A stretch of DNA of 64,000 nt from Bacteroides sp. (GTDB taxonomy: Bacteria; Bacteroidota; Bacteroidia; Bacteroidales; SM23-62): positions 2,122-66,121 of the forward strand of contig DRHS01000002.1 in assembly GCA_011053095.1 (NCBI GenBank), in the 5' to 3' direction. Both the position numbers and the translations under genes were made by a program. Below the pieces are notes generated by a model. The model worked only from the letters and a program-made list of their open reading frames with translations, made no database searches and was not told where the DNA came from. Of this stretch, positions 12,673 through 58,329 are shown one piece after another (the stretch's first letter is position 1; each line of letters begins with the position of its first letter).

Positions 12673-12795
12673 AATGTTGAACAAGGAATTAGATTTAATA
12701 TCTGATTTGTAACAAATATAAATGTATATGACAAGTCAGATTAGGATAGATTTACCATGTATTATGTTAAATCGGGCGAATTGTATAATATGCCT

Positions 12796-36443: not shown

Positions 36444-36718
36444 ATTGACTCTTAATTTAAAAATTGTTTAAAACTATGAATTGGCTTTTGAATTAACTAT
36501 GATAAAACAGGCATGAACTGTACCAGATTCATCAATCAGGGATGGCCGAACAAAATTCTATCTGCCAGGTACCAGCTAACATTTCAGCATACAACATATT
36601 GCACGGCTGAATGATTAGTCCAATAAAATGAAGAATAAATTTTATTTTGATCAATATTAAAGATCTAGATTTACCTCAAACAATTGAATCTGGTAGAAAA
36701 AAAATTAAAATCAACAAA

Positions 36719-39700
36719 ATGAGCAATTGGTCCATGTCACTGAATACTGCAATATACATTTTATTGCTAAGCACCTTCCCGATTAATTCTATTGCCCACG
36801 CATCTCCTGCAGACAATGAACTGGAGGGCTACCTTTTATGCAAAAAGGCTGTTTTTACAAACAGAGGTGACGTGCACAGCAACTGGATAAAGCCGGACTG
36901 GAAAATTGTGAAGCAGGGTGTTTACTACAAATACACTTCATTTGACATTCCTGAGGAAAAAATCCCAATTGACGATGATGTACGATCAATTGTCTCACAC
37001 AGCGAAGAGATAAGGCTACATTTATACGGATTGAATCCCACATCAAAATTTAAACTCAGGCTTACATATCTATCCAATTCATCCGGCCGGGTATTCTCCC
37101 TGAAAGCCGATGATAAGATTCTGCAAAAAGAGATAACCCTGCCTGCAGGTGAAAAGATAGAATATATACTCGACCTCCCGAAATCTGTGTATAAGGACGA
37201 AGCTGTAGATCTCAGTATTATTAATGAATCAGGTCCCAATGCCGTCCTTTCTTCAATTGAGCTTTGGGGGAACAGCAAAGAATCACTTGTTAACCTCGAG
37301 ATAGATATCCAGGGAGATTTTCGTTCCAATATATTCGGCAATATATCTGATGGCTATATGCAGAAAGTTGAAGATGCTGAAATTGAACTCAAACTCGAAG
37401 GAACTGAAAAATCAATAAAACTAAAAAGTGGCAAGGACGGGGCGTTTGAAGCCACGATACCACAGGATTGGAGAAACGATGAGGATAAATGGATATTTGT
37501 CTCTGCAAAAAAAGGCCGTTTGCATGGGAATAATATCCTTGCAAGTATGGAGGTTTTCATTCCAAGGCTTTCTCCAAAACCTTTCAGCGTGAAATCGGTA
37601 AGAAATGCGGAAATAGATCTGAAAGGAATATGGCAATTTAATCCGAATCCGCCGAAAAATAACTATGACATCAATATTAATACTGCAAACTGGGCAAGCA
37701 TAGAGGTACCCGGAGAATGGGGCATGCAGGGATTTGAAGTAGAGGTTGACTCTGCTGCTGCCTACCGGCGTATCATAAACATCCCCCAGGATTGGGCTGG
37801 TAAAAGTGTAAAACTGCGTTTTGATGCTGTTTATAGTGAAACCGATATATGGTTTAATGGCATATATGTAGGGCACCACATGAGTACATATACTCCTTTT
37901 GAGGTTGATGTCACAAAGGCTGTAATGCCGGGTAAGCCGAATGTGCTTGCCATGGAAGTATGCGGAGAGAGTCTTGCCGATGACAATACCGCAAATTATA
38001 TGATGATAGGCAGACGGGCAGGTGGTATTATCCGGCGCACTTCAGCCTTTGCCCTGCCAAAGGTAAACATAGCTTTATTGCATGTTGAGACCCAGTTTGA
38101 TAATGAGTATAACGATGCCGTGTTAATGGTATTTATTGAAATCGCCAACGAGAGTACTGAAGATGTAAGCGGAGTCTCTATGGATTTCGATTTGACCGAT
38201 ACGGATATAAATACTAAAAAATTAGAATTCGGTCCGGCATCCTTCAATCTTGGAGATATAAAAGCCGGAGAATATCTATACAAGACCCTTGAGATCCCGG
38301 TAAAATCACCAAAGCACTGGAATGCTGAAAATCCCAATTTGTACTATCTGGATGGGAAACTGAACATAGAAGGAAATGAACTGCAGGTCTCCAGGCGAAG
38401 AATCGGTTTCCGGGAGTTGGAGATCAGAGGAAATCAGGTCTTAATAAATGGCTCGGTAACAAGGCTTCGGGGGATGTCCCGTCAGGATTCTGATCCTCTT
38501 TGGGGAAGAACCGTTCCGGAAGAAACATTACGCAGAGAAATGGAACTTCTAAATCAAATGAATGTAAATAATGTGTATACCTGTGCATTTTCTCCCGACG
38601 AGTTGATTCTTGATCTGGCTGATGAAATGGGGATGTATATGTTTGAAGAACCAAGTACCTGCTGGATTGGATGGTGGAACGATAATATGGAATCCAGACA
38701 GTATCATTTCAGGCAAAATAAAGTATCCGGCAATACGGATCCAAAAATGTACATGGAATTTCTCAGGCCTGTTGTTGAAATGATACAGCGGGGAAGGAGC
38801 CATCCTTCTTCCATGACATGGATGATTGCAGATGAGTCCGCTTTTATTCCGGCATTTGAGAGGGTTAGGAAATGTGTAAAAGTGTTAGATCCTACACGAC
38901 CTGTGCATTTTGCATGGGATGTACGCGATGAAAGCATTTTCGATCTGGGAAGCCATCACTATCCGAGTTATGTACAGCTTGAAGAATATTCTCATTCGAC
39001 ACGTCCTGTAATTTTTGACCAGTATTATCATATATACAGAAACCGGTTTGTGCTGTCAGTTGATCCCGGGATCCGTAATGAATGGGTGAATGCATTTGTG
39101 CCTTTTTGGGAAAAAACATGGGACACACCTTCTATTTGGGGCGGACAGCTCTTCAATTACACCGATGATATATTTTTAATGCCTTCAGGTGAAGTTGTTG
39201 GATACGGAGCCTGGGGTGTAATAGACCTCTGGAAAAGAGAAAAACCTGAAGCATGGCATATTAAAAAGGGATATTCACCTGCAAAGATTGTGGATGAAAC
39301 AAGTCCCATCCCCGTACCTAAAAGCGGGAACCCGATTGAAATCCAAATAGAGAACAGATATGATTTCACAAATTTAAATGAATTAAATATTGAGTGGTCT
39401 ATTGAGGATGAAACAGGCAAAATAGCCCCGGATATTCCTCCACAAACAAATGGTGTTCTTTCCATCTTTCCTAAAACGAAGAAGCTTGACGGTAAATTGA
39501 TGTCACTCGATTTTTATAAAGACGGGGCATTGGTTGACAGCTACCGTCTCAGGCTTGGAGAACCGAAAAAAGTAAAAATTGGAAAACCAGCTGGGGCAAT
39601 TGAACTTTTGGAATCCGATGCTGCATTTTATATAAATGGAAATGAATTTAAGATGGAAATTGATCGAGAATCAGGGCAATTAAGTGTGAGTTCTTCTGAG

Positions 39701-40465
39701 GGTAAAAAACTACTGGCCACTGGACCCGAACTTGTAATCATGCTGGAAAACAATGAAATTCATACTTCAGGATTCCCCTGGCCCAGACCTGAGATGCCTC
39801 CTCTGAAAGAACTTAATCAGAAGTGTACTGGCTGGGAAGCCAGAGAGGTTGCTGCAAACAAATCGGAGAGTGGGGTAGAGATACTAATCAGGGGAAGCTA
39901 TCAGGAAGCTGAGGGACTGTATCGGTTGAATATCGGAGGCAATGGTAAAATGACTATCGATTATGAGTTTACAACTCATGAGGAAATGCATGTGCGACAG
40001 ATTGGGATCCTTTTCTATCTGCCAAATTCATATGATGAACTGAGCTGGAAAAGAAATGGAAGGTGGTCTAGCTATCCCGACAATCACATAGGCCGCAACG
40101 AGGGTACAGTAAAAGCCTTCAGAGATGCAAGTTTTCCTGAAGTTGATTCAAAAACCAAACCACCCTGGCCCTGGGAGCTTGACAGTAATGAAATGGGAAC
40201 CAATGAGTTTCGTGCAACGCGAACAAATATTCTGGAAGCTGCTCTCAGAGATAAAGATAATGCTGGGATAACAGTAAGGTCGGATGGCAGCCAACAAGTA
40301 AGAGCATTTATAGAAGGCGAGCATACTGGATTATTAGTTTCTGATTTCTATTCACCCGGCCTTGGTAGTTTTGCCGGGGCACAATTAAAATACCAGTTGT
40401 TCAGTGATAAAATACCGAAAGATTCTGTAATCAAGGGCAGGGTAAATTTAGAACTGATTCCATGA
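36719..40465 (+). CDS. GH2-like protein with ~300-aa N-terminal extension and atypical catalytic motifs
   Basis: GH2 sugar-binding domain (INIPQDWAGKSVKLRFDAVYSETDIWFNGIYVGHHMSTYTPFEVDVT). TIM-barrel segments are collinear with LacZ. HPSSMTWMIADES aligns with HPSVIIWSLGNES (Asp replaces Asn before the acid/base Glu; nt 38831-38836). TRPVIFDQYYH aligns with TRPLILCEYAH (Gln CAG at 39020-39022 at the nucleophile position). The ATG at 36719 gives a signal peptide; the track start at 36647 is a TTG. Confidence 0.75.
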   Translation: MSNWSMSLNTAIYILLLSTFPINSIAHASPADNELEGYLLCKKAVFTNRGDVHSNWIKPDWKIVKQGVYYKYTSFDIPEEKIPIDDDVRSIVSHSEEIRLHLYGLNPTSKFKLRLTYLSNSSGRVFSLKADDKILQKEITLPAGEKIEYILDLPKSVYKDEAVDLSIINESGPNAVLSSIELWGNSKESLVNLEIDIQGDFRSNIFGNISDGYMQKVEDAEIELKLEGTEKSIKLKSGKDGAFEATIPQDWRNDEDKWIFVSAKKGRLHGNNILASMEVFIPRLSPKPFSVKSVRNAEIDLKGIWQFNPNPPKNNYDININTANWASIEVPGEWGMQGFEVEVDSAAAYRRIINIPQDWAGKSVKLRFDAVYSETDIWFNGIYVGHHMSTYTPFEVDVTKAVMPGKPNVLAMEVCGESLADDNTANYMMIGRRAGGIIRRTSAFALPKVNIALLHVETQFDNEYNDAVLMVFIEIANESTEDVSGVSMDFDLTDTDINTKKLEFGPASFNLGDIKAGEYLYKTLEIPVKSPKHWNAENPNLYYLDGKLNIEGNELQVSRRRIGFRELEIRGNQVLINGSVTRLRGMSRQDSDPLWGRTVPEETLRREMELLNQMNVNNVYTCAFSPDELILDLADEMGMYMFEEPSTCWIGWWNDNMESRQYHFRQNKVSGNTDPKMYMEFLRPVVEMIQRGRSHPSSMTWMIADESAFIPAFERVRKCVKVLDPTRPVHFAWDVRDESIFDLGSHHYPSYVQLEEYSHSTRPVIFDQYYHIYRNRFVLSVDPGIRNEWVNAFVPFWEKTWDTPSIWGGQLFNYTDDIFLMPSGEVVGYGAWGVIDLWKREKPEAWHIKKGYSPAKIVDETSPIPVPKSGNPIEIQIENRYDFTNLNELNIEWSIEDETGKIAPDIPPQTNGVLSIFPKTKKLDGKLMSLDFYKDGALVDSYRLRLGEPKKVKIGKPAGAIELLESDAAFYINGNEFKMEIDRESGQLSVSSSEGKKLLATGPELVIMLENNEIHTSGFPWPRPEMPPLKELNQKCTGWEAREVAANKSESGVEILIRGSYQEAEGLYRLNIGGNGKMTIDYEFTTHEEMHVRQIGILFYLPNSYDELSWKRNGRWSSYPDNHIGRNEGTVKAFRDASFPEVDSKTKPPWPWELDSNEMGTNEFRATRTNILEAALRDKDNAGITVRSDGSQQVRAFIEGEHTGLLVSDFYSPGLGSFAGAQLKYQLFSDKIPKDSVIKGRVNLELIP

Positions 40466-40493: not shown

Positions 40494-41525
40494 ATGCCAA
40501 ACCCAGATCAGATAAAAATCCATAAACTGCAGAATAAATCCGGAATGACAGTTGGTCTTAGCAATTATGGAGCAAGGGTATTATCAATTATTGTAAAGAA
40601 CAAACATAATAGATATACTGACGTGGCGCTTGGGTACGATACGATTGAAGAATACCTGGTATCAAATGATCCGTATTTTGGAGCAACAGTTGGTAGGTTT
40701 GCAAACAGGATATCCTCTGGCAAATTTGTATTGAATGGAAAAGAATATCAGCTGTCAAAAAATGATCCATGCGGCCCAAATCATGTTCATGGAGGAGATA
40801 CCGGGTTTTCTCATGTTGTATGGAATGTAGTGTTGTCAGACACAAATTCGATAGAGTACCAGTATTTATCCAGGGATATGGAAGAAGGCTTTCCAGGGAA
40901 TTTAAATGTCAGGGTAAAATACAGCTTAAATGATGAAAACTCTTTGGTTATAGACTATAGGGCAACTACCGATGCATCAACGATATGCAACCTTACCAAT
41001 CATACATTTTTTAACCTGAACGGAACCCGAAGTGTTGATATATTGGATCATAGATTATTAATTAATGCCGCAGAATACACACCCGTAAATGATCAATTAT
41101 TACCCATTGGAAATAACATGTTGGTAAAAGATACACCTTTTGATTTCAATTCATTTTCAGCAATAGGTTCCAGATTAGATTCCATAGATGAACAGATTCG
41201 TATTGGCAGGGGATATTGCCATAATTATGTATTAAATAAGAATAATTCTGATTCACCTGCTGCTATAGCTTTTTCCCCGGAATCTGGTATAAGGATGGAG
41301 ATGTTTACTACTGAACCCGGATTACAGTTTTATTCCTGTGGATTTATGGATGGCAGTGATACAGGAAAGGGTAACATGGTTTACGGCAAAAACAGTGCAT
41401 TCTGTCTGGAGGCGCAACATTTCCCGGATTCACCAAACCAACCCGGTTATCCTTCGACCGAACTTATGCCTGGTGAAGTATATTCCCAGATAACGACATA
41501 TAATTTTTCGCTGGATAATTCATAA
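40494..41525 (+). CDS. galM: aldose 1-epimerase (galactose mutarotase)
   Basis: 343 aa, cytoplasmic. Motifs: GATVGRFANRI, NHVHGGDTGF, the C-terminal FCLEAQHFPDSPN motif and NLTNHTFFNL. Confidence 0.9.
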   Translation: MPNPDQIKIHKLQNKSGMTVGLSNYGARVLSIIVKNKHNRYTDVALGYDTIEEYLVSNDPYFGATVGRFANRISSGKFVLNGKEYQLSKNDPCGPNHVHGGDTGFSHVVWNVVLSDTNSIEYQYLSRDMEEGFPGNLNVRVKYSLNDENSLVIDYRATTDASTICNLTNHTFFNLNGTRSVDILDHRLLINAAEYTPVNDQLLPIGNNMLVKDTPFDFNSFSAIGSRLDSIDEQIRIGRGYCHNYVLNKNNSDSPAAIAFSPESGIRMEMFTTEPGLQFYSCGFMDGSDTGKGNMVYGKNSAFCLEAQHFPDSPNQPGYPSTELMPGEVYSQITTYNFSLDNS

Positions 41526-41555
41526 TAACACAAACTATTAGCCTAAAAATCTATT

Positions 41556-42938
41556 GTGAAATATAAAATCAACATTCTGTTTGTCTCCGCAATTACGATG
41601 ATATCCGCTATGGGTGGATTATTATTTGGGTACGACTGGGTAGTGATAGGAGGCGCAAAGCATTTCTATGAAATTTATTTCAATATAATGGACTCTCCCA
41701 ATTTGCAGGGCTGGGCAACAAGCAGTGCATTAATAGGGTGTATTGCCGGGGCAATCCTGGCAGGTACTTTATCGGATAAATACGGCAGAAAACCACCCCT
41801 GATCTTTTCAGCACTGCTTTTTACAATATCAGCAATCGGTACCGGCATGGCTGAAAACTTCACAATATTCATTGTGTTCCGGTTGGTCGGAGGAATTGGT
41901 ATTGGCATGGCAGCATTACTTTCTCCGATATACATAGCAGAAATATCGCCGGCCCGTTTCAGGGGGCTTTTTGTATCAATAAACCAATTGACTATAGTTA
42001 TTGGAATTCTCCTGGCACAAATCGTTAATTATTATATTGCTGAAATTGTTCCTGAAGGATTTACAAATGAGCAAATTCGGAATTCCTGGAACGGACAAAT
42101 GGGCTGGCGATGGATGTTCTGGGCTGAAACCATTCTATCGATATCCTTTCTTTTTCTTGCGTTTTTAATTCCCGAAAGTCCCCGCTGGCTGGTTAAAGCT
42201 GATAAAGGGGACAAAGCCCTGAAAGTACTTTCAAAAATCGGGGGGATGGAGTTTGCTGCAAAAATAAAAGGAGAGATCCAGGATAACCTAAAGAGCGAAA
42301 CGACTAAAATAAATCTCAGGGAATTTAAACATCCCAAAATCAAAAAAATATTAATGATAGGAGTGATTTTCGCCATCCTTCAGCAAATGTGCGGCATAAA
42401 CGTAATTTTCATTTATTCTGATGAAATTTTCACAAATGCCGGATACGGTGTTAACGATATGCTGTTTAATATTATAATGACAGGAAGTGTTAATCTGCTA
42501 TTTACCCTTATTGCTCTCGGGGTAATAGATTCCTGGGGACGACGCCTGTTGATGAAGCTGGGATATGGTGTCTTGGCATTTATCTATATTATTTTCGGAA
42601 TATTTTATAAAATGGGCCTGACCGGTCCCGTTATGCTGGTCTGTGTTTTACTGGCAATTGGTATTTACGCCTTGGCCCTCGCCCCAACAACATGGGTTGT
42701 GCTATCTGAAATTTTTCCAAACAAGGTAAGAGGAGTGGCTATGTCGATAGCTACTTTTGCACTCTGGTCATCCAGTTTTCTAACTACCTATAGTTTTCCG
42801 ATTATTAATAAAACTTTTAAATCATACGGAACGTTTTGGATTTATGCAGGTGTATGCGTTTTGGGATTTATATTCGTTTATAAATTCCTGCCTGAAACCA
42901 AAGGGAAGACCCTAGAAGAAATTGAGGATGCATTTTAG
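41556..42938 (+). CDS. MFS sugar porter, paralogue of 16745-18139
   Basis: GTG start. The N-terminus is collinear with the paralogue (GGLLFGYDWVVIGGAK identical in both). Also GRKPPL, PESPRWL and PETKGKTLEEIE. Confidence 0.9.
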   Translation: MKYKINILFVSAITMISAMGGLLFGYDWVVIGGAKHFYEIYFNIMDSPNLQGWATSSALIGCIAGAILAGTLSDKYGRKPPLIFSALLFTISAIGTGMAENFTIFIVFRLVGGIGIGMAALLSPIYIAEISPARFRGLFVSINQLTIVIGILLAQIVNYYIAEIVPEGFTNEQIRNSWNGQMGWRWMFWAETILSISFLFLAFLIPESPRWLVKADKGDKALKVLSKIGGMEFAAKIKGEIQDNLKSETTKINLREFKHPKIKKILMIGVIFAILQQMCGINVIFIYSDEIFTNAGYGVNDMLFNIIMTGSVNLLFTLIALGVIDSWGRRLLMKLGYGVLAFIYIIFGIFYKMGLTGPVMLVCVLLAIGIYALALAPTTWVVLSEIFPNKVRGVAMSIATFALWSSSFLTTYSFPIINKTFKSYGTFWIYAGVCVLGFIFVYKFLPETKGKTLEEIEDAF

Positions 42939-42981
42939 AAATTTCATCAGATATTATGACAATCAATAAAATCCAAATATC

Positions 42982-44154
42982 ATGAACTCAAGAGAAAGAC
43001 TGCTAAAAGCGATTAATGGAGAGAAGACAGACAGAGTACCCGTTACCCTGTTCATTCAGGATCATGGGCATTATATTCATCAGTTGCATCCTGAGATCGA
43101 TCCAATGGATTACCAGCAACTCACATTTAAAGTGATTGATTACCAGAGAAAACTTGGCTGTGATGTTTTTGCCCGGATGATCTTCGATCTGTATCACCCG
43201 ATTAATATTTGCCTTGGTGGTGTAAATGACGGAGAGGAAACAGATACCTGGAAGGTTGATACAGAAATCATTGAGGAAGGGAATAATTACATCAAAAAAT
43301 CGAAAATAACAACCCCCGAAGGTGTACTTAACCAGACACTTACCCGAGCCTCACAGAATAAGGGCACACATGTATATTGCTGTACCGAAAAGCCAATTAC
43401 CACCGAAGAGGAACTTGACATTGCTATAAAATATGAACCAAAAATGTCAAAAGAGTATGGTGAAATGGTGACTGGAAAAATACAAAGAATAAAGGATTAC
43501 ATAGGAGATGACGGAATTCTCGGAACCTGGGTTTCCGGGGGTCCTGTAAACAATGCTTCAATGATTTTTGACCATGTTAGTTTATATATGCTGTTCATGA
43601 CTGATCCTGATTTTTTCGACAAACTGATGAGATTTACCACAGAGCGTACTCTCAGTTATACCAAGGCTTTCATTGATGCCGGAGCTGATGTTATGCTGGT
43701 TGGTGGCAATGTGGCGGGAGGCTTTCTGGGTACTGAAGTTTATGAAGACTATATATTAAAATACGAGAAAGAATATATTGATTTCATTCAAAATACCGGA
43801 ACACCGGCAGTTTATCATAATTGTGGAAACATTATGAATCTTGTTGAATCATATAAGAAACTTGGGGCACAGGTAGTAGAACCATTTTCTCCTGTACCAC
43901 TTGGAGATGCAGACTTAAAGAAAGCAAAGGAGATTGTAGACGGAGAATATGTAATGATCGCTGGGATAGATCAGGTAAATGTTTTAAAAAATGGTACCGT
44001 CGAAGACGTTATCAAAGTGACAAAAGAAACTATTGATATTGGTAAAAAAGGCGGAAAATTTATCATGCAGAGTGTTGATTTTCTGGAATATAATACGCCT
44101 CCTGAAAATGTGGAGGCATTTGTAAAAACAGCTCTTGAAAATGCATATTACTAA
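42982..44154 (+). CDS. URO-D superfamily protein (MtaA/HemE-like fold), function unknown
   Basis: 390 aa with no signal peptide. N-terminus MNSRERLLKAINGEKTDRVPVT. HNCG motif at nt 43816-43827. No RQAGR motif and no Cys downstream of the HxCG motif. It starts 43 nt after the sugar porter. Confidence 0.75.
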   Translation: MNSRERLLKAINGEKTDRVPVTLFIQDHGHYIHQLHPEIDPMDYQQLTFKVIDYQRKLGCDVFARMIFDLYHPINICLGGVNDGEETDTWKVDTEIIEEGNNYIKKSKITTPEGVLNQTLTRASQNKGTHVYCCTEKPITTEEELDIAIKYEPKMSKEYGEMVTGKIQRIKDYIGDDGILGTWVSGGPVNNASMIFDHVSLYMLFMTDPDFFDKLMRFTTERTLSYTKAFIDAGADVMLVGGNVAGGFLGTEVYEDYILKYEKEYIDFIQNTGTPAVYHNCGNIMNLVESYKKLGAQVVEPFSPVPLGDADLKKAKEIVDGEYVMIAGIDQVNVLKNGTVEDVIKVTKETIDIGKKGGKFIMQSVDFLEYNTPPENVEAFVKTALENAYY

Positions 44155-44292: not shown

Positions 44293-47200
44293 ATGATAAA
44301 ACGGCAAAATATTGTTATAAGTTTTCTTTTGCTACTGTGGATGTCTCAAGTGATTGAAGCACAGCCACTACCAATTTCTCCAGAATTTGTAAGAATCGAT
44401 AGCAAAACAGGTCTTTCCTCAGATAATGTTACCGACATTTTACAGGACAGGGAAGGATTTTTATGGTTTACCACGGTGGATGGAATAAACCGTTTTGATG
44501 GTTATGATATTAAAGTTTTCAAACCTGACTTCAACACCATTAACAGTTTCAATACAGTTCATTTTCAATGCATTGAAGAAGATGCTGAAGGAAATCTCTG
44601 GTTTGGGAGCTATCATTCCGGAATTAATATTTATAGTCGGGTCGATGAATCCGTGCGAATAATTGATGAGAACGGGCCCGAAGGAATGGCTCTTCTGGAC
44701 AATCATATCAATGATATTTTTTGCGATTCAAAAAACAGGATGTGGATATCCACTTTCGCGGGACTAAACCTTTATCTCAGTGATTCAAACAAAATGATCA
44801 CATTTTCCGATGATTACAGTCCCAAAAAAACATTTCCCCGAGGTACAGTTTCCAGAACATTTGAAGATTCCAGGGGCAGAATAATTGTGGGCACATTCGG
44901 TGAGGGACTCTTTCTGTACAATGAAGAAGAAGATGACTTCACACAATTGCTTATAGATGAGATCTATAATATTGAACCTTATGAGAACAGAATATGGACC
45001 ATGCTTGAGATCTCCATGGATACGTTCTGGATTGGGACCTGGGCTGGTGGACTGTTTAAGGCTGTTATTAAGGATGGTGATCCCATTGAAATCCTTACGC
45101 ATTATTCCACAAGCTCTGATGCTCCCAATACCCTGAACAGCGATATCATATATAGCCTGTATTCTGATCCGGATAGTACCCTGTGGATAGGAACACCATA
45201 CGGCCTTCATCTCATGGAAAATCCCGGATCGCCGAAATCAAGTATCACAATTATCCCCGCAGGGTCAAAACCGAATGAAGTCTCCAACAATGAGATCAAT
45301 CGAATTTTTAGTGACAGGGCTGGTGTGATTTGGTTGGGTACCGGAGCAGGTGGTGTTAATAAAGCGGACCTTTCAATCAAGAAATTCGATCTTTTTACCA
45401 TTCCCATCGAGCCCCAATTAGAATCACAGGCCATCCGGGCTTTTGTAAAGGGTCCTGACTCAAGATTTTACGTAGGGGTTAATGGAATGGGCTTCGGGGA
45501 GTACAATGTAAACGACAGAACTTTTATCTCCTATACCCTCATCCCTATGTTCCGGAATGTCAGAAAAGATCTGAATGCAGCTTTATGTTTCCTTCAGGAT
45601 TCCCGGGGATACTTCTGGATTGGAACAAGATATTTTGGATTGATCCGGGTCAGGCCTGAAACCGGTGAAGTAAAATCCTTTTTTCCGTTTGAGTCGGGCA
45701 GCAGCAGGACCATTTACAGCTTGCTTGAAGACGCTTCAAATAATATATGGGTAGGCACAGAGAATGGACTTTTTAAACTTGTTTCAAGGGATGGTCCTGA
45801 ACCATACCAGATTCATCGATTCATTAATGATGAAGATGATCCGTTCTCGATAAGTGGGAATTTTATAAGTGAAATAAAGATGGATTCCCGTGGAAATATC
45901 TGGGTTGGTACCGTTGGAAATGGATTGAACCGGATTGGCAACAGCACAAATACTAATCCACAATTAACTTTCCAGCGATATAATGCCGATAGATCGAATC
46001 CTGAGGGATTGAAGTCCGACATTGTTTATAGTATACATGAAGACGCTAATAAAAGAATTTGGATAGGAACTGGTGCAGCCGGACTTGCCCTGTTAAATCC
46101 CTATAACGGGTCATTTAGGCATTTCTCTGATAATGTCGGCATCAGAGGAGATGCCATCTATGATATTCTTGAAGACGATCAAAATCAACTATGGCTTTCA
46201 AGCAATAATGGCATTACCAAATTTCAATTCAATAATCCTGATGATACCAAGGTTGAAAACTTTGATTACGAAGATGGACTCCAGGGAAATATTTTTAATA
46301 ATGGGGCTACCTATAAGGATGAAACCGGACAGATGTATTTCGGAGGCTCTCATGGGTTTAACCGCTTCAGACCTGATCAATTTGTCAGAAACGAATATAT
46401 TTCCCAGCCAGCATTCACCCAAATCAGTGTTTCTAACAGGCCAGTTAATATATATTCTGCTCTTAGGGATGGACTGGTCATAAAGCACAAGGATAAAAGC
46501 TTTGAATTTTCTTTTACAGCCCTTTCTTTCTCACAGGAAAAAAAGAATAAATTTTCATATATCCTAGATGATTATGACAGTGATTGGCAGATCGTTTCTT
46601 CAAACAGGCGTGAAGTGCGCTATACTAATATCCCGCCCGGGCATTACAAATTCATGCTCACAGCTTCTAACTCCAGTGATGCCTGGAATGATGAACCACT
46701 TATCCTAAACATCCGAATATTGCCTGCACCTGCATACACCTGGTGGGCATTCTCAATATACGGCATCTTACTGATCTCAATTCTTATTACGATTTACTAT
46801 TTTCTGGTAAATAATATTAAGATCAAACAGGCTTATGAAATTGAGAAGATTGAACATATTAGGGATGAGAAGCTTGCCCAGTTCAAATTGAGATTTTTTA
46901 CCAATATTTCCCATGAATTGCTTACTCCTTTATCTGTGATATCCTGTACGGTTGAGGATTTTCTGCATAACAGGCAAATCAAAAATGATAATATACTTGC
47001 CATGCAGAGGAACATCAACCGTCTTATGAGGCTAATCAGTCAGTTGCTGGATTTTCGCAAGGTTGAAAGCGGTTCAATGAAGCTAGTGGTACAAAAGGGG
47101 GATTTCAATGTATTTATGAAGCAAATGATCGACAATTTCAAGCCCCTGACCAGTAGTAAGAACTTAGACATCGAGTTAACCGGCAACCTGGAAAAGGATA

Positions 47201-48444
47201 TATGGTTTGATCTGGATAAACTTGATAAAATAATCAGCAATCTTATGTCCAATGCGCTCAAATATTCACCAGATCATGGAAAGCTGCGGATAAAATACAA
47301 TTTGACCCGAAAGGAAAACAGCAATTTTCTTAATGTTGAATTCACCGATTCCGGTCCCGGAATTGACAAGGAAAAACTGCAACATGTTTTTGATAGGTTT
47401 TACAGGATAGAATCCGTGACAGGTAAAACCTTTGGTACAGGTATTGGACTGGCATTGTCTAAAACTCTTGTCGAGGTTCATAAGGGAGAGATCCATGTTG
47501 AAAATGACAAGGAACTTGGTGCCAAATTTTCATTTGAGATTCCGGTTTCGAAAAAATCTTTTGATCCAGTACAGACCCAGTCCCAGGAAATGGATTACAA
47601 TTCTTTAAATCAAATTACGGATTTTGAAGATTATCCTGACAAAGACGCAGATGACATACCTGAAATATCTGAGGATAAGAAATTTACCATACTCATTGTA
47701 GAAGATAACATAGACTTCAGAAGACTTCTTTCAAATTATTTTTCCACTTTCTACAATGTCATTGAAGCAGATAATGGTAAACAGGGATTGGAACTTACCA
47801 GTGAGAAGCATCCGGACCTGGTTCTGTCAGATGTGATGATGCCTGAGATGAACGGAGTTGATCTTTGCAAGCAGATAAAGACCAATCTTGAAATAAGTCA
47901 TATCCTTGTAATCCTTCTAACAGCGAAAACAGGAGAACAAACCATGCATGAAGGATATTATGCCGGAGCCGATTCCTATCTTGCGAAACCCATAAACCTG
48001 CGAATACTTCATACACGTGTCAATTCCTTACTGGATCAGAGAATCAAACTGATCGAGAAATTCAACACTGGTTATATGCCAGAACCCGGTGAGAAAAAAT
48101 TACCCAGCCTGGATAATAAATTTCTTACAAAGATCCAGGATCTGATTATGGATAAGATAACCGATCCTGAATTAAATGTTACAAGTCTGTGTCGTGAAAT
48201 AGGGGTTAGCAGCTCCATGCTATACCGTAAGTTAACTCGAATAACAGGCAAATCCCCGGTAGAGTTTATTCGGTTCATACGGCTTCAAAATGCTGCCCGA
48301 CAAATGGTTAAAGAAGATGTTAATGTATCCGAAGCAGCCTATCAAAATGGCTTCAATGACTTGAGTTACTTCAGCAAAAGCTTTAAGAATCAATTTGGAT
48401 CCACACCCAAACAATTTATTAAAGACAAGTCGGGAATAAAATAA
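44293..48444 (+). CDS. hybrid two-component system regulator (HTCS): periplasmic beta-propeller/Y_Y_Y sensor, HisKA-HATPase, receiver, AraC-type HTH
   Basis: 1383 aa. It has repeated propeller blades (LWFGS, MWISTFAGL, LWIGTPYGL, IWVGTENGLF and others), a TM helix (WWAFSIYGILLISILITIYYF), an H-box (FFTNISHELLTPL), an ATPase domain (DSGPGID...GTGIGL), a receiver (DLVLSDVMMPEMNG) and an AraC HTH (AYQNGFNDLSYFSKSFKNQFG). Confidence 0.95.
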   Translation: MIKRQNIVISFLLLLWMSQVIEAQPLPISPEFVRIDSKTGLSSDNVTDILQDREGFLWFTTVDGINRFDGYDIKVFKPDFNTINSFNTVHFQCIEEDAEGNLWFGSYHSGINIYSRVDESVRIIDENGPEGMALLDNHINDIFCDSKNRMWISTFAGLNLYLSDSNKMITFSDDYSPKKTFPRGTVSRTFEDSRGRIIVGTFGEGLFLYNEEEDDFTQLLIDEIYNIEPYENRIWTMLEISMDTFWIGTWAGGLFKAVIKDGDPIEILTHYSTSSDAPNTLNSDIIYSLYSDPDSTLWIGTPYGLHLMENPGSPKSSITIIPAGSKPNEVSNNEINRIFSDRAGVIWLGTGAGGVNKADLSIKKFDLFTIPIEPQLESQAIRAFVKGPDSRFYVGVNGMGFGEYNVNDRTFISYTLIPMFRNVRKDLNAALCFLQDSRGYFWIGTRYFGLIRVRPETGEVKSFFPFESGSSRTIYSLLEDASNNIWVGTENGLFKLVSRDGPEPYQIHRFINDEDDPFSISGNFISEIKMDSRGNIWVGTVGNGLNRIGNSTNTNPQLTFQRYNADRSNPEGLKSDIVYSIHEDANKRIWIGTGAAGLALLNPYNGSFRHFSDNVGIRGDAIYDILEDDQNQLWLSSNNGITKFQFNNPDDTKVENFDYEDGLQGNIFNNGATYKDETGQMYFGGSHGFNRFRPDQFVRNEYISQPAFTQISVSNRPVNIYSALRDGLVIKHKDKSFEFSFTALSFSQEKKNKFSYILDDYDSDWQIVSSNRREVRYTNIPPGHYKFMLTASNSSDAWNDEPLILNIRILPAPAYTWWAFSIYGILLISILITIYYFLVNNIKIKQAYEIEKIEHIRDEKLAQFKLRFFTNISHELLTPLSVISCTVEDFLHNRQIKNDNILAMQRNINRLMRLISQLLDFRKVESGSMKLVVQKGDFNVFMKQMIDNFKPLTSSKNLDIELTGNLEKDIWFDLDKLDKIISNLMSNALKYSPDHGKLRIKYNLTRKENSNFLNVEFTDSGPGIDKEKLQHVFDRFYRIESVTGKTFGTGIGLALSKTLVEVHKGEIHVENDKELGAKFSFEIPVSKKSFDPVQTQSQEMDYNSLNQITDFEDYPDKDADDIPEISEDKKFTILIVEDNIDFRRLLSNYFSTFYNVIEADNGKQGLELTSEKHPDLVLSDVMMPEMNGVDLCKQIKTNLEISHILVILLTAKTGEQTMHEGYYAGADSYLAKPINLRILHTRVNSLLDQRIKLIEKFNTGYMPEPGEKKLPSLDNKFLTKIQDLIMDKITDPELNVTSLCREIGVSSSMLYRKLTRITGKSPVEFIRFIRLQNAARQMVKEDVNVSEAAYQNGFNDLSYFSKSFKNQFGSTPKQFIKDKSGIK

Positions 48445-50520: not shown

Positions 50521-52512
50521 ATGAATCAAACTACAATATCTCTTATAGTTACATTATTTATGTTCCAGCTGTCATCATGTGACCAATTACAGGATGCGGG
50601 AAAGCATGATAGCCTGGTTATTCAAATCGATCCTGAAGGATCAGGACGGACTTTTGAGGGGATAGGCGGAGTCAGCGCAGGAGCATCGTCGGAATTGTTG
50701 ATTGATTATCCCGAACCATACAGGTCAGATATCCTTGACTATCTTTTCAAGCCGGGATTTGGAGCTTCCTTTCAGCAACTTAAAGTAGAGATAGGAGCAG
50801 ATGCAGTGGTGGTAGGATCAGAACCCAGCCATGCACGGAACCGAGATGAACTGCTCAATCCCAGGCCGGAATATTATCAGAGAGGTTATGAGTTCTGGTT
50901 TATGAAAGAAGCCCTGAAACGAAATCCCACGATAACTACCTCTGCACTCGAATGGGCTGCGCCGGCATACCTTGGGGGACACTGGACGCAGGCCAATGCC
51001 GATTACATTGTTCAATTTATCAGAGGTGCAAAAGATTTTTGGGACATAGACATTAAGTACATTTCTCCGGGCAAAAATGAAAGTAAAATCAGTACAGAAT
51101 GGCTGAAGGATGTTTTCAAACCAACACTCGATGCAGCCGGTTTTTCCGATGTAAAAATACTTGCCCCGGATAACCTTGGTTATTATTGGGAGATATGTGA
51201 AGAGATGATAACAGATCCGGAGCTTGAATCTGTTATTGATGCAGTAGGCTATCATTATGTATATTATCATCTTCCACAATTGGGTCATGAGGAATATGCC
51301 TCTACAGAATCTGCAAAATCTCTGGATGCATCGCTCTGGGCGTCGGAGGACTGGTCTGCGCACGATGGATCCTGGAAAAATGCACACCTACTGGCCGGTA
51401 TCCTTAATAAAATGTATATCCGTGACCGTATTACAGCTATGCAGATTTGGTGTCCATTCGACGGGTATTATGATAATACCGGAGAATGGAAATCTACCGG
51501 ACTGATGAAAGCCGATCAACCTTGGACCGGATACTATGAAGTCTCCCCAGCCATATGGGCAGCTGCACATTTTACTCAATTCACAGATATTGGATGGAAC
51601 TATATTGACTCCGCTTGTGGTTATTTTGAGTCTTCATCGGGTGGCAACTATACCACTCTGATCAATCCTGAAAAGACCGAATATTCTACTATTTTCTTTA
51701 CAGACAGTGTTGCCAGATCTATCGAGCTTATCTGCCCGGAGCAAGCAAGTGGAAGAATTCATAAAATTTGGCATTCTAATGAGAGTGAACAATTTGTCCA
51801 ATTACAAGACATCGAACCCCTCAATGGAAGGATCACACTCGAACTCGAGCCCGGGTCCATCTATACCATATCTACTTTGGAAGGACGCAGAAAAGGGAAA
51901 GCTCTTTCAGCGATCCCTGATTCCGCAGGTTTCCCAATACCATATGCTGAGAATTTTAACGAGGAACGACCGGGTATGAGTCCCTCGTATTTCGCAGACA
52001 TTCAGGGAAGTTTTGAATTAACATCAGCAAACGGAAAACAATGGCTGGAACAAAAAGTTACAGAGGATCCCATCGATTGGACCTTCTTCAATGCATTCAA
52101 GCCCCTTGGCCCACTTACCCAGGTTGGTGATATCACCTGGGAAGATTATGATGTTTCAGTAGACGTTATGCTCCCCGACGAGGGATATGCACAGCTTATT
52201 GCACGGATGGGAGAACTGCCAGTTTATACCAGTGGATATATACTTAAGCTGTATCATGACGGATATTGGGAATTACTATTAAACAGCCACCAAATATTGG
52301 GCTCCGGCAAAATCGGGAATAAGAGCAATGAATGGCATAGTTTGATGCTGCGATGTTCAGGTTCCAGGATTGAAGCATACATAGATGGATCCCTTCTTAA
52401 GATGGTCGAGGACGACAGGGTTGGAAGGGGACTTGTGGGACTTGGATGCAGCTGGAATAAAATCAGATTCGATAACCTTACAATTGAAGAATATGTACAA
52501 AATCCCAAGTAA
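50521..52512 (+). CDS. GH59 glycoside hydrolase (galactocerebrosidase-like beta-galactosidase) with C-terminal lectin-like domain, lipoprotein
   Basis: Long collinear matches to human GALC as I remember it: [33 protein letters not shown] vs [48 protein letters not shown] vs GYEWWLMKEAKKRNP; KNES (acid/base-type); LWASEDWS vs LWSSEDFS (nucleophile); [14 protein letters not shown] vs SPVWVSAHTTQFT. The signal ends in QLSSC. ATG at 50521. Confidence 0.9.
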   Translation: [663 protein letters not shown]

Positions 52513-52516
52513 ATAC

Positions 52517-53626
52517 ATGGATCGCATAGAAAACTCCAAGGAAAGAATCCGAGCTGTCTATGAACACCGTAACCTTGAGATGCCATATATCGTGAACTAC
52601 ATGAATTACTGGCTTGAGGGTGAAACCCCATCCATGATACCTCAAGATTATTTCGATGATCCTGCTGTTATGACAGATTTTCAGCTGAAGAAGATTGATT
52701 TTCACATGGAAAATTTTCAGGATGATTTCATCCCCCTGCTGCATCCCTGGTTCGGAATAGGAGTGGTACCATCGGCAATGGGATGTGAAATTGAATTTGT
52801 AAAAAATGGGGATCCTGCAATACGTAAAGCCGCCATCAACCACCCCGAACAAATAATGGAGCTGAAAAGGCCGGATCCTTATAGTGATGGACTTATGCCC
52901 AGGGTACTCGGGGCAATCGACTATATGAAACAGCATACCGATATTCCTGTGAGTGTAACCGATACCCAGGGACCCTTGAATATTGCACTAAGTGTATGTG
53001 GACTTGAAAACATGTTCTCCTGGATGCTTATGTATCCGGAAAAGGCACATGAATTAATGGAACTAAGTACAGATATCCTAATTGATTGGGTAAAGGTTCA
53101 GAAAAAACATGCGGGACAGGAGATGGAATCAGGTGCCTGGCCCCATGCTATCCACCTTCCTGAGGGATATGGGGGTGTATGGCTTTCTGATGATGATTGC
53201 ACCCAGCTTCCGGCCGATCTTTACAGGGAATTTGTTGTCCCCTATAACAGCAAGGTGCTAAAAGCCTTCGGGGGTGGGACGATTCATTTCTGCGGAACGG
53301 CGGATCACCAGCTTGATAATTTCCTGGCGACAGATGGACTTACAGGGATCAATAATTTCTGCATGGGAGATTTCAACCAGGTAAAGCTGATGCAGGAGAA
53401 GTTTGAGGACAAGATTGCCATAATGGTTTGTGATTTCGCTCCCCTGGATATGGAAGGATATTTTCATGAAATCTTTTCTGTTATGCGCACTAAAGGCAAT
53501 ATTCTGGCAATTTTTATTGCCCCCGAATTTGCCCTGGGTGACGGACGCTATAAATTGGGTTCCCGCGAGGGTAATGAAACATCGAGGATTATCAATGAAA
53601 TTATTCGGAAGCAATTAAATAGATAA
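52517..53626 (+). CDS. URO-D superfamily protein (MtaA/HemE-like fold), function unknown
   Basis: Start taken at the ATG at 52517, 4 nt after the GH59 stop; the track ORF from 52385 overlaps GH59. N-terminus MDRIENSKERIRAVYEHRNLEMPYIV. HFCG motif at nt 53285-53296. No signal peptide and no RQAGR motif. Confidence 0.7.
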   Translation: MDRIENSKERIRAVYEHRNLEMPYIVNYMNYWLEGETPSMIPQDYFDDPAVMTDFQLKKIDFHMENFQDDFIPLLHPWFGIGVVPSAMGCEIEFVKNGDPAIRKAAINHPEQIMELKRPDPYSDGLMPRVLGAIDYMKQHTDIPVSVTDTQGPLNIALSVCGLENMFSWMLMYPEKAHELMELSTDILIDWVKVQKKHAGQEMESGAWPHAIHLPEGYGGVWLSDDDCTQLPADLYREFVVPYNSKVLKAFGGGTIHFCGTADHQLDNFLATDGLTGINNFCMGDFNQVKLMQEKFEDKIAIMVCDFAPLDMEGYFHEIFSVMRTKGNILAIFIAPEFALGDGRYKLGSREGNETSRIINEIIRKQLNR

Positions 53627-53634
53627 ACTGCATT

Positions 53635-54300
53635 ATGACTGAATGGAAAAATGATGATGAGCTGATCAGGACCATTAAAGAGGAACTGTTCACCGCAGTG
53701 ATTGGAGATATCATGGACAAGATGAATTATCTGAACCAATTCCTTCCTCCTCAGATTCAGCCCCTCCGTGACAACATGATAGTGGTTGGCAGGGCAATGC
53801 CGGTACTTGAGGCAGATACCTTTGGGAATACCGTTGCGGGTACGGCCAATGACTTAATGAACAAACCTTTTGGATTAATGCTCGAGGCGCTTGATGACCT
53901 TAAGAAAAATGAAGTTTACATCTGTACGGGATCCTCTCCCAGTTATGCTTTATGGGGTGAGTTGATGAGCACAAGGGCCATAAAATTAGGTGCTGCAGGC
54001 GCAGTGGTTGATGGGTATGCCCGGGACACCCTGGGCATATTGGACCTGAACTTCCCCACATTTTGCTACGGTAGGTACGCACAGGACCAGGCTCCACGCG
54101 GTAAGGTGATTGACTTCCGGCTGCCAGTTCAAATAGGAAATGCTAAGGTCAATCCCGGAGATCTGGTAGTTGGAGATCTTGACGGTGTCTGCATCGTTCC
54201 CAGAGATATCGAGAAAGAGGTTATCGGGGAGTCCCTTGAGAAAGCCAGGGGAGAAAAAATGGTACAAAAAGCCATTGAAGAGGGAATGAGCGCAAGGTAA
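53635..54300 (+). CDS. RraA-family protein (class II pyruvate aldolase / oxaloacetate decarboxylase-like)
   Basis: 221 aa. LWGELMSTRAIKLGAAGAVVDGYARDT...FPTFCYG...PGDLVVGDLDGVCIVP matches the RraA/HMG-CHA aldolase family pattern (G.....A...G..G.V.DG..RD ... GD.DGV..VP). Confidence 0.8.
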   Translation: MTEWKNDDELIRTIKEELFTAVIGDIMDKMNYLNQFLPPQIQPLRDNMIVVGRAMPVLEADTFGNTVAGTANDLMNKPFGLMLEALDDLKKNEVYICTGSSPSYALWGELMSTRAIKLGAAGAVVDGYARDTLGILDLNFPTFCYGRYAQDQAPRGKVIDFRLPVQIGNAKVNPGDLVVGDLDGVCIVPRDIEKEVIGESLEKARGEKMVQKAIEEGMSAR

Positions 54301-54338
54301 GCTTTTGATAAATTTGGAATAATGTAACTCTGAAAATT

Positions 54339-55499
54339 ATGAAGATTACTGATGTAAAAGTCTGGCTTGTCGAGGGAATAAAGTACAACTGGACCATGCT
54401 GAAGATCTATACCGATGAAGGTTATACAGGAGTAGGAGAGGCTACCAACTGGCCTGGAAGCCCTATCGTTGAAGCTGCAGCAAAACACGCGGGTGAAAGG
54501 ATAATAGGCATGGATCCTATCCGAACGGATTATATCTGGACCAAGCTTTACCGGGACCTTAACTGGGTAGGACCATTTGGCGCTAGTTTATGTGCCATTA
54601 GTGGCATAGATATGGCCCTGCTTGACCTGAAGGCCAAGGTCCTCGGAGTCCCATGCTATGACTTATTGGGAGGTGCATACAGGAATGAGATCCTGCTCTA
54701 TGCAAATTACTGGTTTATAGATGGGGGACATAATGCCCGTGATTATGCTGATCAGGCACTAAAGGTGGTTGAGAAAGGTTTTACGGGACTCAAATTTGAT
54801 CCATTTGCACACACAAGTTATTTTTATGGGGACGATCTTTCCACAAATATGGCATTGGACCGTGACCAGCAGGATAAATCCTATGAAATTGTGAAAGCCG
54901 TCAGAGAGGCAGTTGGTCCAAATGTCGATATACTGATAGAAACACATGCCCTGCTGAATTTCAAGACTGCCATCATAATGGCCGAACGCTTAGCCGAACT
55001 TGATATTACATGGTTTGAAGAACCTGCCGGACCTGAGAACGAAAAGACATTGAAGGTTTTCAGGGAGCGCCTTGATCCCAGGGTCTCAATATGTGTGGGT
55101 GAGAGGCATTATACCCGCTATGGTATCAGGCCAATCCTGGAAAACGGTATTTGCGATATCATTATGCCCGATATTACCCGATGCGGTGGACCATCCGAGA
55201 TGAAGCGAATGGCGACAATGGCAGAAACCTATAGTGTACTGATTGCTCCGCACAATCCCAACGGTCCGTTGAGCACCCTGGCAAGTGGACATGTATGTGC
55301 CTCTATACCAAATTTATACCGACAGGAATTTATGCTGAAAGATGTGCTCTGGAGAGATGAAATCATCGATCACCCCCTTGAGTTCAAGAATGGGCACCTG
55401 GTACTTTCAGACCGATCGGGACTTGGGGTCGATCTTGTAGAAGAAGTGATGGAAGCGCATCCTGGTATTCGTAAAGCGAAACAGGGTTTTTATGTATAA
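54339..55499 (+). CDS. enolase-superfamily sugar-acid dehydratase (mandelate racemase/muconate lactonizing family; galactonate/mannonate dehydratase-like)
   Basis: MKITDVKVWLVEG...LKIYTDEGYTGVGEAT is a DgoD/ManD-like N-terminal capping domain. Barrel motifs: GIDMALLDLKAKVLGVPCYDLLGG, VDILIETH, ITWFEEP, ICVGER, DIIMPDITRCGG. Confidence 0.85.
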   Translation: MKITDVKVWLVEGIKYNWTMLKIYTDEGYTGVGEATNWPGSPIVEAAAKHAGERIIGMDPIRTDYIWTKLYRDLNWVGPFGASLCAISGIDMALLDLKAKVLGVPCYDLLGGAYRNEILLYANYWFIDGGHNARDYADQALKVVEKGFTGLKFDPFAHTSYFYGDDLSTNMALDRDQQDKSYEIVKAVREAVGPNVDILIETHALLNFKTAIIMAERLAELDITWFEEPAGPENEKTLKVFRERLDPRVSICVGERHYTRYGIRPILENGICDIIMPDITRCGGPSEMKRMATMAETYSVLIAPHNPNGPLSTLASGHVCASIPNLYRQEFMLKDVLWRDEIIDHPLEFKNGHLVLSDRSGLGVDLVEEVMEAHPGIRKAKQGFYV

Positions 55500-55517
55500 C
55501 CCATATTAATATTAAAT

Positions 55518-56309
55518 ATGATACCCATTGATCTCAAAGACAAAGTGGCCATTGTGACAGGTGTTTCCAGTGGGATCGGTGCCGGTGTTGCGGCAACCCT
55601 TGCAGAAGCTGGCTGCCACATATCCTGTTGCGCAAAGAATAATCCGGATTCCCCGGGAGTCTTGAATTTCATACATACAGTGGAATCTCTTGATCGCAAA
55701 TGCATGTATCAGAAAGCAGATGTCACATCCACAGAGGAAATTCAATCCTTAGTAAAAAATACCGTTGATAAATATGGCAGGATTGACATCCTTATATCCA
55801 ATGCGGGAATGAATGTTTTTAAAGGTGCTGAGGAAGCTTCAGAAGGAGACTGGGATTTTAATATGAACCTCAATCTGAAGTCTCACTGGACAATTGCCAA
55901 ACTATGTAAACCATATCTATCAGAAAGTCCGAATGGTGTAATTATTATTAACTCCTCCAATCATGCCTACAGTACAATACCCGGTTGTTTCCCCTATAAT
56001 GTATCCAAGGCTGGAATTTCTGGCCTGGTACAGTCCATTGCCATTGAATGGGGACCTGATATCCGAACCATTGGGATTGCTCCCGGATTTATCGTTGTCG
56101 AAAGCACAAAAGCATGGTTCGATTCCTTCCCCGATCCCGGGGCTGAGCTGGAAAGAACCATACAGAGACATCCTGCGGGCAAGATTGGGACTCCCCAAGA
56201 CATAGGGGCGTTCTGCGCTTTCCTGGCCAGTGATTATGCGGGATTTATTACAGGTGTTACCTACCTTATCGACGGGGGCAGATCTGCTCTAATGCAGGAT
56301 GATCAATAA
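55518..56309 (+). CDS. short-chain dehydrogenase/reductase (SDR)
   Basis: TGVSSGIGAG (TGxxxGxG), NAG and YNVSKAG (YxxxK). 263 aa. The stop TAA (56307-56309) overlaps the next ATG (56309-56311). Confidence 0.9.
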   Translation: MIPIDLKDKVAIVTGVSSGIGAGVAATLAEAGCHISCCAKNNPDSPGVLNFIHTVESLDRKCMYQKADVTSTEEIQSLVKNTVDKYGRIDILISNAGMNVFKGAEEASEGDWDFNMNLNLKSHWTIAKLCKPYLSESPNGVIIINSSNHAYSTIPGCFPYNVSKAGISGLVQSIAIEWGPDIRTIGIAPGFIVVESTKAWFDSFPDPGAELERTIQRHPAGKIGTPQDIGAFCAFLASDYAGFITGVTYLIDGGRSALMQDDQ

Positions 56310-58324: not shown

Positions 58325-58329
58325 CTATA

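Follow-up and report, generated by a model that had tools for sequence, protein, structure and literature searches.

The question raised by this locus is how a protein of glycoside hydrolase family 2 (GH2) could work when the residue at its nucleophile position is a glutamine. The window, a stretch of 64,000 nucleotides from Bacteroides sp. (assembly GCA_011053095.1, contig DRHS01000002.1, positions 2,122 to 66,121), carries at 36719..40465 on its forward strand a gene for a 1248-residue GH2 protein with Asp-Glu at the acid/base motif and Gln in place of the nucleophile. GH2 has been split into 23 subfamilies, and the Glu nucleophile is called invariant (Lebreton et al. 2025, PMC12243196). The window protein belongs to GH2 by sequence and fold, whereas in its catalytic machinery two features described as invariant for the family are missing.

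Fold and catalytic centre of the window protein

The acid/base motif consists of Asp-Glu (GAT GAG, 38831..38836, +), in which Asp takes the position of N460 of E. coli LacZ and Glu that of E461. Gln (CAG, 39020..39022, +) occupies the position of the nucleophile E537. The codons in frame, HMMER, and a MAFFT alignment anchored on E. coli LacZ all give these assignments. In the HMMER comparison with solved GH2 structures, MIADES falls on SMGNES or SLGNES, and PVIFDQYYH falls on PLFLCEYSH. An earlier note on this DNA had read both substitutions from a motif alignment to LacZ, and that alignment is confirmed in every detail. In the AlphaFold2 model, Asp-Glu lies at the C-terminal end of strand 423-430 and Gln within strand 489-496, which are the expected places of barrel strands β4 and β7.

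Further positions of the catalytic centre, assigned from alignment counts, also differ from LacZ. Strand β1 has Arg-Gln-Asp (38480..38488, +) in place of Arg-His-Glu (LacZ R356-H357-E358). The segment YTCA of β2 and loop 2 (38576..38587, +) has Tyr for R388, the Arg that assists the nucleophile, and Ala for H391. Met is found in place of S457 (38822..38824, +). The segment IWGGQLFNYTDD pairs with LacZ GGFVWDWVDQ in the MAFFT alignment, which gives Phe (39152..39154, +) for W568, which in LacZ is the loop-8 Trp stacked against the −1 sugar. Like the rest of its subfamily, the window protein lacks the Mg2+ ligands E416 and H418. In contrast, the acid/base Glu, the β1 Arg, and the loop-6 Tyr (Y503; 38960..38962, +) are shared with LacZ. 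The Asn preceding the acid/base Glu has become Asp, and this first motif residue varies in other GH2 subfamilies too (S-E, S-D). As far as the alignment goes, the surroundings of C1 and C2 are all altered (the nucleophile, its Arg, the Asn, the loop-2 His, and the loop-8 Trp), and the acid/base residue is kept.

All five domains of a LacZ-type GH2 protein score above the Pfam gathering cut-offs. The sugar-binding and Ig-like domains (LacZ domains 1 and 2) span 37694..38413 (+; PF02837, E 2.5e-16; PF00703, E 2.2e-11), and the (β/α)8 catalytic barrel (LacZ domain 3) spans 38420..39271 (+; PF02836, E 1.5e-28), where it is also seen in the model. LacZ domains 4 and 5 (LacZ_4, PF16353; Bgal_small_N, PF02929) follow at 39341..40462 (+) and are covered at high confidence in the model. 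With phmmer, the protein matches solved GH2 chains down to E 2e-40, and LacZ-type β-galactosidases of GH2_10, E. coli LacZ among them, at about 1e-38 to 1e-40. The AlphaFold2 model of residues 276-1248 has a mean predicted local distance difference test score (pLDDT) of 91.7 and a predicted template modelling score of 0.93. Its best Foldseek matches are LacZ-type β-galactosidases with template modelling scores (TM) of 0.73-0.78 (0.76 for LacZ-type GH2_10 enzymes). The five-domain fold thus appears intact in the model, including the barrel typical of clan GH-A. A Pfam search for membership of GH20, GH84, or GH123 gave no match to PF00728, PF07555, or PF13320.

Upstream of these domains, and as a difference from LacZ, the protein has an N-terminal extension of about 250 residues (36803..37543, +), which is also present in long canonical relatives, that is, those with Asn-Glu and Glu. 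It is modelled as two β-sandwich modules, a jelly-roll and an Ig-like one (AlphaFold2 model m75fff94ca290), and is all-beta with a pLDDT of 85.8. Foldseek gave only weak matches for the extension (GH2 N-domains and malectin-like folds, TM <= 0.37), and Pfam gave none. The gene is the sole long frame across the motif region, according to the list of open reading frames (ORFs) and their translations. This frame is open already from TTG 36647 (ORF 36647-40465, +), and ATG 36719 is the likely start, where both the signal peptide and an identical database form of 1248 residues (P0002, MSNWS...) begin. The Sec-type signal peptide MSNWSMSLNTAIYILLLSTFPINSIAHA (36719..36802, +) was recognised in the N-terminal sequence, with the cleavage site judged by eye. 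There is no lipobox Cys in the N-terminus and no C-terminal domain of the type IX secretion system (T9SS), the Pfam search of the protein having given no Por_Secre_tail match. Because a Sec signal is present without either of these features, the protein is probably periplasmic. The acidobacterial relatives P0012-P0014 and P0083, which belong to the same clade, do not have the N-terminal extension, and their export signals are of the twin-arginine type (SRRxFLG) and not Sec.

Conservation and coupling of the substitutions

Relatives were collected by a word-indexed homologue search and then by an exhaustive phmmer search over 1.8 billion representatives. The first search returned 16 clusters, the most distant with 44% identity in the catalytic domain and each with WM[IL]xDES and FDQ, and the GH2 subfamily comprises 1471 representatives at E < 1e-30 with phmmer. 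The motifs at N460-E461/E537 were tallied over 229 aligned proteins. N-E with Glu is found in 201 of them and D-E with Gln in 24, while D-E with Glu, N-E with Pro, and N-E with Ala occur once each, and one fragment does not reach the motifs. The D-E/Gln proteins form two groups, namely clade A with the window protein (17 clusters) and clade B (38 clusters, 7 + 31), which has the motifs WQxxDE[CA] and [FY]DQ. The 31 further clusters of clade B come from a second search with a clade-B query, and all of them are D-E/Gln. Clade B has a sharp limit, since a match at 48% identity is D-E/Gln and a match at 47% is N-E/Glu. D-E and Q are present throughout both clades down to about 33% identity. The check proposed in the earlier note, whether orthologues share D-E and Q, has a positive answer for every orthologue down to about 43% identity.

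These counts bear on the possibility, also raised in that note, of a recent inactivating mutation or sequencing error at base 39020 in a decaying gene copy. CAG is indeed one base from GAG, but Gln is found in all 17 clade-A and 38 clade-B clusters, and its codon is CAA in three loci (two distinct genes, as loci L001 and L002 encode the same protein). Gln is also coupled to two or three more invariant substitutions, and the ORF is intact over 1248 codons. A lesion or error is refuted by the shared D-E and Q of the orthologues with either Gln codon, and its probability is negligible. In the 16 gene copies of the fetched loci, the three residues are encoded by GAT or GAC, GAG or GAA, and CAG or CAA. 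Selection therefore acts on the residues and not on the bases, and D-E/Q appear to be under purifying selection. Asp, Glu, and Gln do not vary in any of the 24 D-E/Gln proteins of the first sets, in which full conservation is limited to 50 of 460 ungapped columns, or in the 32 D-E/Gln proteins of the second set (31 new clusters). The tree lengths are 3.9 and 2.6 substitutions per site in clades A and B.

When each clade is compared with 50 canonical members of the subfamily, four positions differ in both. N460 is Asn in canonical proteins and Asp in both clades, and E537 is Glu in canonical proteins and Gln in both clades. R388 changes from Arg to Tyr in clade A (17/17) and to Phe in clade B, and S457 changes from Ser to Met in clade A and to Gln in clade B. 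An independent set shows the same pattern at R388/N460/E537, where Phe/Asp/Gln is the combination in all 32 D-E/Gln proteins and Arg/Asn/Glu in all 76 N-E/Glu proteins. These three positions switch strictly together in D-E/Gln proteins versus the 50 + 76 canonical relatives. The exchange of R388 for Tyr or Phe is absent from all of about 275 N-E/Glu relatives. The acid/base E461 and the β1 Arg R356 are kept in all 56 D-E/Gln proteins, and Y503 of loop 6 in 24/24 of the first sets and 31/32 of the second. Clade A additionally has H357Q, E358D, H391A, Y392F, and W568F, each in 17/17 proteins. The canonical relatives have His (50/50) and Glu (45/50) at the two β1 positions, and the loop-8 Trp is retained in both clade B and canonical relatives. 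N460D is the one carboxylate that the two clades have both gained; E358D of clade A simply keeps an acid at its position.

The altered positions can be compared with those that vary among GH2 subfamilies. The variation reported for the family (Lebreton et al. 2025, PMC12243196) falls on the N-E motif, on a loop-2 His near the C2 and C3 hydroxyls, on a loop-6 Tyr, and on a loop-8 Trp. Supplementary Table S3 of that study has a Glu nucleophile in all 22 analysed subfamilies, and an assisting Arg in all 20 of the subfamily rows examined except GH2_22. In those rows, the R-x-x-H spacing identifies the tabulated Arg and His as LacZ R388 and H391. The subfamilies acting on C2-modified sugars (β-mannosidases, β-glucosaminidase, and GH2_14) are those that alter the N-E motif and the loop-2 His (PMC12243196). 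In the tabulated part, the GH2_16 exo-β-D-glucosaminidase CsxA (PDB 2X09) and other group II subfamilies acting on C2-modified sugars accommodate the C2 substituent through changes at two sites that are also altered in the window protein. The N-E motif is S-D in GH2_16, and the loop-2 His is replaced by Glu, Trp, or Gly. Unlike the window protein, none of these enzymes has lost the Glu nucleophile or the assisting Arg, and they belong to another branch of GH2.

The loss of both the nucleophile and its partner Arg is also what a non-catalytic carbohydrate-binding pseudo-enzyme would show. Its pocket would be frozen in a binding, non-hydrolysing state and would serve periplasmic glycan binding or sensing for the locus. 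LacZ E537Q is a classic substrate-trapping mutant, structures exist for E537Q (PDB 1JYN, 7BRS, 6KUZ) and N460D (3VD3, 3VD4), and a hybrid two-component sensor is encoded just downstream at 44293-48444. However, across about 55 clusters, whose summed tree length exceeds 6 substitutions per site, there is no variation in Asp, Glu, Gln, or the aromatic residue at 388 and almost none in the loop-6 Tyr, whereas known pseudo-glycosidases tolerate varied residues at dead positions. Pseudo-glycosidases are recognised by relaxed constraint on the remaining catalytic residues, and here E461, R356, Asp, Gln, and the aromatic residue are all without variation. Binding needs neither an acid/base Glu nor the new Asp. 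Two or three D-E/Gln paralogues occur in single operons alongside active-type GH42 and GH2 genes, and such multiplicity within ordinary glycosidase operons is odd for a binder of more than 1000 residues. The dead binding protein listed in the earlier note is thus weakened by the strict conservation of its remaining catalytic residues, and it is somewhat unlikely.

Clade A is monophyletic with a support of 100/100, clade B has a support of 83/96, and both are nested among N-E/Glu proteins. Three state changes are required on a quick tree of 84 rows and two on a careful tree of 39 rows. A single D-E/Gln clade is not rejected by approximately unbiased (AU) tests (p 0.74 and 0.46). No convergence is claimed, since the best trees have two or three changes and a single origin is compatible with the AU tests. 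P0152, which groups with canonical proteins in the tree, is the only relative that combines ADES (Asp-Glu) with a Glu nucleophile, and this combination may reflect an intermediate state or simply an error.

The distribution of the D-E/Gln gene is patchy. No orthologue was found among 40 related genomes, where the best match has 37% identity and all matches are N-E/Glu, nor among 400 genomes sampled from the phylum. The carriers among GTDB species are metagenome-assembled genomes of Acidobacteriota from peat-type samples, other members come from metagenomes, and the clade spans several phyla. GH2_12 is a candidate subfamily for the clade, being uncharacterised, more than 80% from Bacteroidota, and composed of proteins of more than 1000 residues. 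Against this placement, GH2_12 members are reported as mostly non-secreted.

A possible catalytic route without an enzyme nucleophile

GH20, GH84, and GH123 enzymes have an adjacent Asp-Glu or Asp-Asp on β4 and no enzyme nucleophile, and the oxygen of the 2-acetamido group attacks instead. The favoured explanation for the D-E/Gln proteins, given a probability of about 0.45, is an active retaining exo-glycosidase that uses neighbouring-group participation as in these three families, with a rebuilt catalytic centre. The substrate would probably be a C2-modified sugar, most likely an N-acetylated one, and the route is unreported for GH2. Neighbouring-group participation is favoured because the nucleophile and its Arg were lost together, the acid/base residue was kept, and the altered positions are those tied to C2-modified substrates. 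The earlier note had listed such participation on a β-N-acetylhexosamine (β-HexNAc) substrate among its options. On these three grounds it is the best-supported one, but the operon does not have a HexNAc-like character.

In the rebuilt centre, the Glu nucleophile of β7 and its partner Arg of β2 are exchanged for the neutral pair Gln and Tyr, and a new carboxylate stands beside the acid/base Glu through the change from Asn-Glu to Asp-Glu on β4. In the proposed mechanism, the protein would still be a retaining glycosidase, only without a nucleophile of its own. The leaving group would be protonated by the Glu at the E461 position of LacZ, and C1 would be attacked by a nucleophilic C2 substituent of the −1 sugar. 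This substituent is most likely a 2-acetamido group acting via an oxazoline or oxazolinium. The new Asp would orient and polarise the C2 group, in a pocket whose walls would include the new aromatic residue and the loop-6 Tyr that has been kept. The intermediate would then be opened by a water molecule that the acid/base Glu activates. The sugar would probably be galacto-configured, for example β-GalNAc (N-acetylgalactosamine) or a related 2-acylated galactoside. It may come from oligosaccharides released by the exported GH30 enzymes, sulfatases, and galactosidases of the locus.

The likeness to GH20, GH84, and GH123 lies in the (β/α)8 barrel, the Asp-Glu at the end of β4, the missing enzyme nucleophile, and the Tyr and aromatic residues that surround the site of the 2-substituent. 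A DE motif has been described for GH123-type enzymes (PMC11087588). In contrast, there is no sequence relationship to these families, Gln is kept at the nucleophile site of the window protein, and its operon is not HexNAc-like. By analogy, the D-E/Gln protein would work like these enzymes without belonging to them. Another parallel is reportedly man-made. Andre-Miral et al. are said to have described in Glycobiology in 2015 a GH1 β-glycosidase engineered into a trans-β-N-acetylglucosaminidase, with Asp before the acid/base Glu, the nucleophile removed, and oxazoline-based chemistry. It belongs to another family, and its nucleophile was reportedly replaced by a small residue, unlike the Gln found here.

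Several points weigh against neighbouring-group participation. Gln has the size of Glu, so the space under C1 that an acetamido group would need is not created by this substitution alone. Mutants of LacZ with only E537Q or only N460D (in PDB as 1JYN and 3VD3) are crippled enzymes, and N460D has a raised substrate affinity. These mutants have the same two substitutions at the same positions, but each has one change in a canonical site, whereas the natural clade joins both with R388Y/F and S457M/Q. Neither the window nor most related loci showed NagA, NagB, NagK, or a HexNAc transporter. The neighbouring genes centre on galactose (GH2_20, GH42, GH59, and GalK), and the operon itself has a mutarotase and a Sugar_tr MFS transporter. 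No literature report was found of a GH2 protein that lacks the nucleophile or that uses substrate-assisted, oxazoline, or neighbouring-group catalysis. In the part of Supplementary Table S3 consulted (PMC12243196), hexosaminidase activity of a GH2 enzyme is listed only once, as a weak secondary activity of a canonical member of GH2_15.

Genomic setting and the candidate substrate

The window forms a polysaccharide locus of the Bacteroidota style, with SusC and SusD, sulfatases, GH59, the hybrid two-component sensor mentioned above, four genes like uroporphyrinogen decarboxylase (URO-D), and four GH30 genes, two of which encode T9SS-exported giants. The D-E/Gln gene heads a probable operon with three partners identified by Pfam or NCBIfam matches. 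These are an aldose 1-epimerase (GalM-type mutarotase; 40494-41525, +), a Sugar_tr-type MFS transporter (41556-42938, +), and a URO-D/MtaA-like protein (42982-44154, +). The gaps between the operon genes are 28-43 nucleotides by ORF coordinates. No convincing terminator was found in these gaps, all terminator-like matches being inside coding sequence, and no signal peptide was found in the three partners (40494..44154). The other GH2 gene of the window (9802-12684, −) is of the GH2_20 type (PDB 8U01, E 1.4e-248) and lies 24 kb away on the opposite strand. It has intact VGNE and SHEIG, in agreement with the earlier note, which had stated that this protein keeps GNE and SHEIG.

The four URO-D/MtaA-CmuA-like genes of the window are paralogous and lie at 8531-9802 (−), 42982-44154 (+), 52385-53626 (+), and 57251-58324 (+). 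None of their products has a signal peptide, no corrinoid-protein gene was seen, and FolD (7550-8431) adjoins one of them. They may be a sugar O-demethylation system. No literature linking uroporphyrinogen decarboxylase with polysaccharide utilization was found. One to four URO-D-like genes are present, one to three of them near the clade-A gene, in 8/8 clade-A loci with DNA sequence (the window, L001, L018-L021, L024, and L099), versus 15/74 loci of canonical relatives. The clade-A locus of P0012, available as a gene table only, has no URO-D-like gene within 10 kb.

A GH2_20 orthologue stands directly beside the clade-A gene in loci of other phyla (L001, L018, L020, L021, and L024), and a GH2_20 gene is near canonical relatives in only 1/74 loci. 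The GH2_20-type neighbours were located at 6547-9936 in L001, 663-3479 in L021, 5372-8116 in L024, and 16094-19150 in L020. In the acidobacterial loci, further genes encode GH42, galactokinase, GH31, LacI, and oxygenases, and L001 has a SASA esterase. Clade-A and clade-B genes occur together in L020 (CAIWFH010000032.1) and L099 (JGI 3300033402), which are of Acidobacteria type. In both of these loci there are also URO-D-like genes, a gene for a TonB-type outer-membrane protein, and GH42, of which L099 has two copies. GH123 and GH20 neighbours were found in one locus only, namely on the opposite strand of L099, which also has a GH59 fragment. P0294, a divergent D-E/Gln member that groups with clade B, lies among GH88 and KDG-pathway genes. 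In acidobacterial operons, a 365-residue protein is encoded between a URO-D-like gene and GH42 (L018, 9863-10957; L021, 7928-9022; L099, 3958-5055). It belongs to no Pfam family and has only a faint GH43-related match.

This setting bears on a further explanation, in which other chemistry, either nucleophile-free or with a relocated nucleophile, acts on a C2-modified galactoside that is not an acetamido sugar. Such a substrate could be 2-O-acylated or otherwise decorated, as in methylated, acetylated, or sulfated galactan. Asp would then be a relocated nucleophile, or a base acting on O2 to give a 1,2-anhydro intermediate as in GH99. It fits the galactose-centred context without HexNAc catabolism, the URO-D/MtaA-like genes in all examined clade-A loci except that of P0012, and the esterases (SGNH at window 58321-59052 and SASA in L001). 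Asp at N460 is also the only carboxylate gained in both clades. On the other hand, such chemistry is without precedent in clan GH-A, epoxide formation is poorly favoured by trans-diequatorial β-galactosides, and the Asn or Asp side chain normally reaches O2 and not C1. The URO-D-like genes also occur near some N-E/Glu relatives and thus do not explain the loss of the nucleophile. Other chemistry of this kind is unlikely. The full combination of a C2-decorated, non-acetamido galactoside of methylated or acetylated galactans, an undescribed clan chemistry (Asp nucleophile, 1,2-anhydro, or acyloxonium), and a module with GH2_20 and URO-D/MtaA-like proteins is more doubtful still.

A cassette of SDR, SMP-30, enolase-superfamily, and RraA-like genes is found at 53635-57205 in the window. 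The whole GH2 subfamily, including its N-E/Glu members, recurs beside such an RraA-like/enolase-superfamily/SDR/SMP-30 (lactonase) cassette. Besides the window, the cassette-bearing loci are L027, L029-L031, L042, L054-L057, L072, L073, L075, L076, and L079, and the association extends over Bacteroidota, Acidobacteriota, Bacillota, and Actinomycetota. This suggests that the sugar released by the subfamily feeds the cassette pathway. The cassette dehydratase gave no identity for this sugar, as the closest solved enolase-superfamily proteins are uncharacterised.

No report of a D-E/Gln GH2 clade was found in the literature. CAZy families are used for the prediction of mechanism, and GH2 is assumed to have one invariant Glu nucleophile, a rule that is broken by a conserved clade of several phyla. 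Annotated as "beta-galactosidase", the genes of this clade would be given the wrong function in work on how glycans are broken down in marine and peat settings. If neighbouring-group participation is the true explanation, the clade would be a natural example of a double-displacement glycosidase converted to a nucleophile-free mechanism, by a route that parallels the engineering of GH1.

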